Source of the DNA: Candidatus Heimdallarchaeota archaeon
GTDB taxonomy: Archaea; Asgardarchaeota; Heimdallarchaeia; Hodarchaeales; Hodarchaeaceae
Length of the DNA: 61,592 nucleotides
Assembly: GCA_020353515.1 (NCBI GenBank)
Contig: CP070695.1
Location: 4,128,221 to 4,189,812, forward strand
Direction of reading: 5' to 3'
The notes beneath the pieces were generated by a model, which ran no database searches, was not told the origin of the DNA, and worked only from the letters and a program-made list of their open reading frames with translations. A program made the translations under genes and the position numbers. Numbering within the stretch: position 1 is the stretch's first letter; each line of letters starts with the position of its first letter. This document shows positions 24,467 through 25,264 of the stretch, in pieces.

Positions 24467-25264
24467 TTAAACGCCGATTTTTTGGATGGTTCCGATTTTC
24501 TCAAGGATCATTTCACGTTCGATTGGATCTGTTACGTCACGTATTGTAAATTCATTCTTGAAACGATTGGAATTTAGGTTTGAAGCAGTTCGTCCCGCTA
24601 AAAATAAAAGTCGTTGGGGAGCTGAATCATCAAGTTTTATTAGAAGTATTCGTTTAATGACTCCATTGATTAAAATCAATACTGGATGGGAGGTAAGATC
24701 GTCACTAGGTTCTAAAGTGATTAATTCTCCTTCACTGTTGACGGTATGAAACTCTAATCCCCCCCTTTCGGGGATATAATATGGTTTTTCTGTGTAGCTA
24801 GGAATTTCCTCTGTAGCTGAAATTTCTTTAATCCGACTTAAAATTCGTTTCATAATAGTAGGATCAGTTAAGTTATCTTCAATATGAATTGTACGGATTT
24901 CTTCCTTTAACGCCTTTTCAATTATTGTATGTTGAAGAAAAATGCGATCACGATCTTTAGAATCAAATAGCAGCCAAATAGTTGATTCACGGCCATGTAG
25001 GTCAATTCGTACGTCTTCTGTCCGAGTTGGAGCTACTGTAAAAGACATAGCTAAAGCTTCTAAGTTAGGAGAATCTGGAATTGGAATAGATCCATGTAAA
25101 CGATAATGTTGTTTCTCCGCTACTGTTCCTGCTCCCATAGAAAGAATGGTCATCCCAATGACACTTAACTTCACAGTTGTATCTTCTCCAATCGGAGACA
25201 AATTTAAGAGCGGAAATGGACCCATATCAGTCATTGTGGTTACTATTAACCCAGATATCATCAT
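24467..25264 (-). CDS. Longin/uDENN-like N-domain fused to a gelsolin-like C-domain
   Basis: N: GLIVTTMTDMGPFPL...LHGSIPIP..SF..D.R; C: LTSHPVLILIN..KRILLIK..SAPQRLLFLAGRTASNL. Confidence 0.6.
   Translation of the reverse strand: MMISGLIVTTMTDMGPFPLLNLSPIGEDTTVKLSVIGMTILSMGAGTVAEKQHYRLHGSIPIPDSPNLEALAMSFTVAPTRTEDVRIDLHGRESTIWLLFDSKDRDRIFLQHTIIEKALKEEIRTIHIEDNLTDPTIMKRILSRIKEISATEEIPSYTEKPYYIPERGGLEFHTVNSEGELITLEPSDDLTSHPVLILINGVIKRILLIKLDDSAPQRLLFLAGRTASNLNSNRFKNEFTIRDVTDPIEREMILEKIGTIQKIGV

Follow-up and report, generated by a model that had tools for sequence, protein, structure and literature searches.

The 61,592-nucleotide stretch of Candidatus Heimdallarchaeota DNA analysed here (the window) encodes a 265-residue protein in which a longin domain of the type found in eukaryotic GTPase-activating subunits is joined to a divergent gelsolin repeat, and the gene for this protein is embedded in an array of Rag/Gtr-type GTPase genes (Table 1). 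The occurrence of this two-domain longin-gelsolin protein in a Rag array is confirmed and lies far beyond chance. From the folds, homologies, motifs, synteny and natural gene fusions, we infer that the protein is likely to be a two-domain regulator of the neighbouring Rag-family GTPases, combining a GP-motif longin that would act as a GTPase-activating protein (GAP) with a gelsolin-like binding module, a sequence-based reading to which a probability of about 65% may be given.

Table 1. Features of the longin-gelsolin gene and of the adjoining Rag-type genes (positions in the window).
Feature	Position	Strand	Basis
Downstream Rag/Gtr GTPase (Rag309), 309 aa, 17 nt after the stop codon of the longin-gelsolin gene	23521..24450	-	PF04670, E 1.3e-33
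Whole gene, 265 aa: longin, linker and gelsolin-like domain	24467..25264	-	ORF
N-terminal longin domain, residues 1-152, FLCN/NPRL2/SMCR8 'GAP longin' type	24809..25264	-	AF2 topology, Foldseek, VIA
GP motif G15-P16, turn between strands 1 and 2	25217..25222	-	At least 90% conserved in the 39-sequence wide family
D84-x-R86...G91-R92 loop between strands 4 and 5	24989..25015	-	R86, candidate arginine finger; R92, alternative
Variable disordered linker, residues 153-167	24764..24808	-	pLDDT <50 at 155-167; variable columns
C-terminal divergent gelsolin repeat, residues 168-263	24476..24763	-	Profile, hhalign, Foldseek, VIA
I209-K210-L211 at the gelsolin W-x-G position, motif lost	24632..24640	-	hhalign, IWKG versus LIKL
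N231...K236 patch, end of the long helix and next loop	24557..24574	-	56 C-domains
Upstream Rag-shaped protein (dead Rag), start uncertain	25293..26312	-	Weak PF04670, 7.8e-4
Upstream Rag/Gtr GTPase (Rag358), 358 aa, first gene of the array	26251..27327	-	PF04670, E 5.8e-36

About 70 close relatives of the protein, with 55-100% identity, were retrieved; all are unnamed proteins, none has a precomputed Pfam domain, and the named records among them are from Hodarchaeales, Heimdallarchaeota or other Asgard archaea. An exhaustive phmmer search gave 92 related cluster representatives, and single-sequence searches of Pfam, NCBIfam and the PDB (phmmer) with the 265-residue protein yielded nothing useful. 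In most orthologues, translation starts at the equivalent of the second methionine of the open reading frame (25261). An alignment of 32 family members is divided into two conserved blocks separated by a variable linker, and the AF2 model of the whole protein computed from it (pLDDT 80) displays the secondary-structure order bb-a-bbb-aa, typical of longins, at residues 1-150, a disordered segment at 155-167 and the order bbbb-a-b-a at 168-263. The initial annotation had pointed to several short motifs, all of which are present: G15-P16 after strand 1, HGSIPIP (57-63), S74-F75, D84-V-R86 and QRLLFLAGR (217-225). Its assignment of the N-terminal half to the longins and of the C-terminal half to the gelsolins is borne out by AF2, Foldseek, VIA and profile comparisons; in particular, the separate Foldseek searches that it had proposed for each half returned longin matches for the former and gelsolin, ADF-H and Sec23 matches for the latter.

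Residues 1-152 adopt the longin fold. The best Foldseek match of this domain is the longin domain of a Lokiarchaeota Roadblock-Longin protein (8yqg; E 4.6e-6), followed by chains of GATOR1 (NPRL2), of the FLCN complex, of DENND10 and of C9orf72-SMCR8, and VIA-align gave Z-scores of 13.1 for 8yqg, 12.1 for the Lst4 longin, 11.7 for 7o2w_A, 11.6 for 8dhb_J (active FLCN GAP complex) and 9.6 for 9o5a_H (GATOR1). A profile of the domain also ranked 8yqg first in the PDB (E 0.14) and did not reach FLCN, NPRL2 or SMCR8, to which there is no significant sequence match. The longin of 8yqg, the closest structure, is dimeric and also carries a GP at the same turn; on the other hand, 8yqg and the Asgard fusions of longin or roadblock domains to GTPases are devoid of a gelsolin-like domain, unlike the protein described here. 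As a separate observation, a 1458-residue protein (P0119) is matched by longin residues 10-51 five times at a regular 188-residue spacing, and may be a tandem-repeat protein of longin-like units or an assembly artefact.

Across 39 aligned longin domains of the wide family, D13, G58 and D84 are invariant, and G5, G15, P16, P61, R86, G91 and R92 are at least 90% conserved. Since strand 1 of the longin sheet pairs with strand 5, the GP motif, located in the turn between strands 1 and 2, and the D-x-R motif, in the loop between strands 4 and 5, lie side by side. Judging from this topology and from approximate alignment ranges, R86 may be equivalent to FLCN R164 and NPRL2 R78, the arginine fingers of the eukaryotic GAP longins. 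According to PMC12290439, the GAP longins FLCN, NPRL2, SMCR8 and C9orf72 are set apart by a GP motif that lies next to the arginine finger, in the turn connecting strands 1 and 2, and a class of Heimdallarchaeial longins is organized in the same way. With these proteins the present one shares the longin fold, the GP motif at that very turn (G15-P16), a conserved arginine in the neighbouring loop and the association with the Rag family. It is, however, much smaller than FLCN, NPRL2 and SMCR8, and its C-terminal domain is identified by Foldseek and VIA as a gelsolin repeat in place of a DENN domain. In eukaryotes, GAP longins are equipped with a DENN domain and function in heterodimeric pairs; within the four-gene array, by contrast, there is no second longin gene.

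The C-terminal domain was modelled alone from a diverse alignment of 40 sequences, resulting in an AF2 model with pLDDT 89 and pTM 0.81 that displays the gelsolin/ADF-H fold, with a mixed sheet between a long and a shorter helix. Gelsolin, ADF/cofilin or Sec23 chains account for 49 of the top 50 Foldseek matches, the best of which is the Thorarchaeota gelsolin ProGel (7c2f), with TM-scores of 0.63/0.72. In a VIA comparison with all representatives, ProGel superposes on 87 of 88 residues with a Z-score of 11.3, an r.m.s.d. of 2.4 and 22% identity; the Z-scores are 8.4-10 for gelsolin, adseverin, villin, fragmin, the Asgard 2DGel and Sec23A (8.4 for the last), 4.5-6.5 for ADF/cofilins, 5.2-5.6 for Sec24 and at most 4.5 for unrelated folds. 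The neighbours of the domain in the ESM Atlas are clusters of Asgard hypothetical proteins together with gelsolin-family clusters.

The kinship with gelsolins is also apparent at the sequence level. ProGel is the sole significant match in the PDB of a profile built from the 40 C-domain sequences (hmmsearch, E 0.0026, nearly full length), and in its own genome the profile retrieves, besides the domain itself, two open reading frames (E 4e-7 and 1.6e-4) that pass or approach the Pfam Gelsolin model and carry IWKG or IWTG, the one at E 4e-7 being PF00626-positive. When compared by hhalign with an alignment of 29 canonical Heimdall gelsolin domains, the C-domain is matched over 84 columns with a probability of 97.5% and an E-value of 6.5e-12, and with a probability of 91.5% when compared with a second canonical gelsolin alone. 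The hhalign alignment reveals a long-helix signature, P-x-R-x-x-F-[IL]-x-x-[RK]-x-A-x-x-[LM], common to the C-domain and the canonical gelsolins of the same genome, and a shared D-P-x-E at the start of the last helix; N200 replaces the strand aspartate of the canonical domains. It also places the I-K-L tripeptide at the position of the W-x-G motif, the absence of which had been remarked upon in the initial annotation. Indeed, the family consensus contains neither tryptophan nor glycine there, so that the (D)W-x-G sequence that follows the fourth strand is absent, and PF00626 (Gelsolin) does not match the 265-residue protein at E-values up to 1 or any of the 40 family members at E-values up to 10.

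On account of the profile and hhalign homology, the C-domain is a real gelsolin repeat, yet a divergent one, in which W-x-G has been lost and to which the Pfam model is blind. It is best explained as deriving from ProGel-like Asgard gelsolins and as having been re-tooled, with loss of W-x-G and acquisition of a new patch formed by N231 and a lysine or arginine at position 236. ProGel and the Asgard mini-gelsolins (1DGelX, 2DGel) have in common with it a single gelsolin/cofilin core of about 90 residues with the same order of strands and helices, and 1DGelX likewise combines one gelsolin domain with a second domain. In contrast to these proteins, the gelsolin domain is here C-terminal to a longin, its gene is tied to Rag GTPases, I-K-L stands in place of W-x-G, PF00626 fails to detect it, and N231 and K/R236 are newly conserved. 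A profile search for longer proteins carrying the C-domain revealed no new partner domains.

Among 56 C-domains, N231 is conserved in 95% and position 236 is occupied by lysine or arginine in 98%, followed by D246 (82%), I206 (82%), K204 (79%), G179 (79%) and E249 (75%). Canonical gelsolins have arginine and glycine at the positions of N231 and K/R236, respectively, in the hhalign alignment, and these two residues are therefore specific to the family. None of the arginines of the domain is invariant: R218 is retained in 64%, R225 in 46% (with lysine in a further 25%), R234 in 36% and R242 in 66%, which argues against a catalytic finger of the Sec23 type. The proposal of the initial annotation that the arginines of QRLLFLAGR might be GAP residues is at odds with these figures, and a second arginine finger in this segment was rejected for want of conservation across the wider family.

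In the array, the gene lies 28 nt downstream of that of the dead Rag, which in turn follows the Rag358 gene, and the Rag cluster that had been recognized from the sequence is substantiated by the assignment of the flanking genes to Gtr1/RagA GTPases (PF04670, E 1e-33 and 6e-36). Six further genomes of the genus preserve the order Rag358, dead Rag, longin-gelsolin gene, Rag309, even where the identity of the longin-gelsolin protein falls to 62%. All of the G motifs of the dead Rag are altered, with GKD for GKS/T, DWLS for DxxG and NRGH for HKxD, yet throughout the genus the protein persists in the array, with identities of 48-86%; its true start is probably further in, since the listed TTG start codon overlaps the end of the Rag358 gene by 62 nt. 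Elsewhere in the window, a 203-residue open reading frame with no Pfam or NCBIfam match (22335-22946, minus strand) lies about 570 nt downstream of the Rag309 gene, and the region comprising 29697-30599 (plus strand) and 32590-34685 (minus strand) contains a fourth Rag-like GTPase (PF04670, E 1.4e-22), located beyond an MFS transporter gene, a CBS protein (PF00571) and proteins of 312 and 344 residues with no Pfam match.

The association with Rag GTPases extends to distant relatives. Two-domain proteins with 37-44% identity also adjoin a Rag gene at three loci, L048 (37% identity, from another class), L009 (P0072) and L075 (P0080); no Rag gene occurs within 4 kb of P0161, another distant member of the family. 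In two lineages the longin and the gelsolin-like unit are fused to a Rag in a single open reading frame (P0076, 597 residues; P0108, 548 residues), and in these natural fusions the gelsolin-like domain directly precedes the G domain. A second family (P0097, P0103, P0106, P0108 and P0111) combines the same gelsolin-like domain with a different N-terminal domain, a Fuz/roadblock-like longin without the GP motif that gives weak matches to Fuz/Mon1 longins; P0097, P0103 and P0111 are found beside Rag genes and P0108 is the fusion mentioned above. The Rag type adjacent to or fused with the relatives is that of Rag309. What stays constant among the neighbours and fusions of both longin families is therefore the partnership between the gelsolin-like domain and a GTPase of the Rag309 type, whereas the longin differs.

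The same genome contains a paralogous locus (L077:7627-13369; G000:C1:2891626-2897368) with two tandem GP-longin and gelsolin-like proteins of 341 and 345 residues, both with an additional C-terminal piece of about 90 residues that gives weak HTH-like matches, followed by a convergent 303-residue Rag and a 739-residue protein with an N-terminal Rag domain; an HSP90 gene is found upstream. At another locus (L002:1474-2977; G000:C1:2587516-2589019), a canonical PF00626 protein of 313 residues, composed of a gelsolin domain with IWKG, a PT-rich linker and a C-terminal domain, is followed after 22 nt by a Ras/Rab-family GTPase gene (PF00071, E 2e-49). This pair is kept in 18 of the other loci retrieved, including one from another family at 47% identity, and pairs of gelsolin-domain and small GTPase genes are therefore recurrent in this group.

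The eukaryotic members of the GP-motif longin class (FLCN, NPRL2 and SMCR8) are GTPase-activating subunits, and the combination of GP motif and arginine in the present longin favours GAP activity. The near-invariant arginines of the protein are R86 and R92, both in the loop between longin strands 4 and 5. Most likely, the longin would dock on the G domain of a Rag, chiefly that of Rag309, encoded directly downstream, and would stimulate GTP hydrolysis through the conserved arginine of the D84-x-R86 loop, probably in the form of a longin-longin dimer. The gelsolin-like domain would act as a protein-binding module of the Rag complex, remaining with this Rag type irrespective of the longin joined to it. 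GEFs and scaffolds make up the majority of longin/roadblock platforms, and the longin platform could instead confer GEF activity, a reading to be set against the GP motif and its arginine. Prediction of the complex between the full-length protein and Rag309, both supplied as alignments and without controls, gave ipSAE values of 0.00 and 0.01, which speak neither for nor against binding.

With regard to the partner of the gelsolin-like domain, we lean towards a protein other than actin, namely the GTPase, its roadblock tail or the dimer mate. As the initial annotation proposed, the domain might still bind actin in the manner of ProGel, coupling the nucleotide state of the Rag to filament dynamics or tethering the Rag complex to filaments, which appears rather unlikely. 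The long helix, the actin-binding element in gelsolins, keeps the signature of the canonical gelsolins of this genome, which also encodes an actin (E 1e-132), and the pairing of a canonical gelsolin gene with a small GTPase gene in the genus points the same way. The nearest relatives by structure and sequence are, moreover, Asgard gelsolins that bind actin experimentally (7c2f, 7whf; PMC7444086). However, W-x-G, lost here, is kept by ProGel and 2DGel, and the gelsolin-like domains of Sec23/24 are instances of the fold without known actin binding (PMC7444086); the failure of Pfam Gelsolin to match a single one of the 40 family members, the absence of the most conserved residues, N231 and K/R236, from canonical gelsolins, and the presence of at least four canonical gelsolin-domain open reading frames in the genome also weigh against actin.

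Among the partners other than actin, the G domain of the Rag itself comes into consideration, which the gelsolin-like domain would contact so as to add to catalysis or to the sensing of the nucleotide state, as Sec23 does on Sar1. In that COPII GAP the gelsolin-like domain contacts Sar1 and supplies a catalytic residue (PMC11914678), a use of the fold in a regulator of an Arf-superfamily GTPase that the present protein would share. The superposition on Sec23A (Z 8.4), the location of the domain directly before the G domain in the fusions, its persistence with the Rag whichever longin is attached and the basic side chain that 98% of the family carry at position 236 are all in line with this mode of action, which we nonetheless consider improbable: no arginine of the domain is invariant, an exchange between lysine and arginine at 236 would be unusual for a catalytic finger, and the domain is closer to actin-binding gelsolins (Z 11.3 and 9-10) than to Sec23/24 (8.4 and 5.2-5.6). 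The remainder of the protein is a longin, and the other four domains of the Sec23/Sec24 architecture (barrel, zinc finger, trunk and helical) are absent. It is even more doubtful that the domain is a GTPase-docking module on the G domain of a Rag309-type GTPase, and not an actin binder, that sets an archaeal precedent for the Sec23-Sar1 mode. Asgard Sec23-like proteins have been reported to be without a gelsolin-like domain (PMC11914678), and if the docking module were real, the longin-linked domain would be a candidate source for that of Sec23. There is also a small chance that the domain touches neither actin nor the G domain and only homodimerizes, heterodimerizes or assembles the complex, as DENN does in FLCN-FNIP and NPRL2-NPRL3. 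Such a scaffold would fit its occupation of the DENN position of the eukaryotic longin GAP subunits, the dimeric state of the 8yqg longin and the two tandem copies beside two Rags at the paralogous locus, which suggest a heterodimer; in contrast, the conserved and apparently exposed polar patch formed by N231, K/R236, D246 and E249 points to a specific partner.

The components of this system are known separately in Asgard archaea, GP-motif longins (in Heimdallarchaeia), gelsolins and Rag GTPases each having been published, and fusions of longin, GTPase and roadblock domains are a known Asgard theme (PMC10933270). In the cultured Lokiarchaeon, GTPase genes as a rule do not share operons with those for longins or roadblock proteins (PMC10933270), whereas the linkage between longin and GTPase is here tight and conserved. 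A literature search retrieved no description of the longin-gelsolin architecture, of its Rag fusions or of the second longin family with the same domain. The union of a longin and a gelsolin in one conserved protein, linked by gene order and sometimes by fusion to a specific Rag type, had thus not been described before in the literature searched.

Nutrient signalling in eukaryotes is centred on Rag GTPases and their longin GAPs (folliculin and GATOR1), and gelsolins are central regulators of actin. The protein and its Rag offer a well-defined pairing of regulator and switch that is open to expression and assay and comes from close prokaryotic relatives of eukaryotes. If the longin is a GAP, the regulation of Rags by GP-motif longins would be older than eukaryotes. 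As for the gelsolin half, binding to actin would connect Rag-type switches directly to the cytoskeleton in an archaeon, and binding to the GTPase would constitute a precedent for the use of the gelsolin fold in the manner of Sec23.
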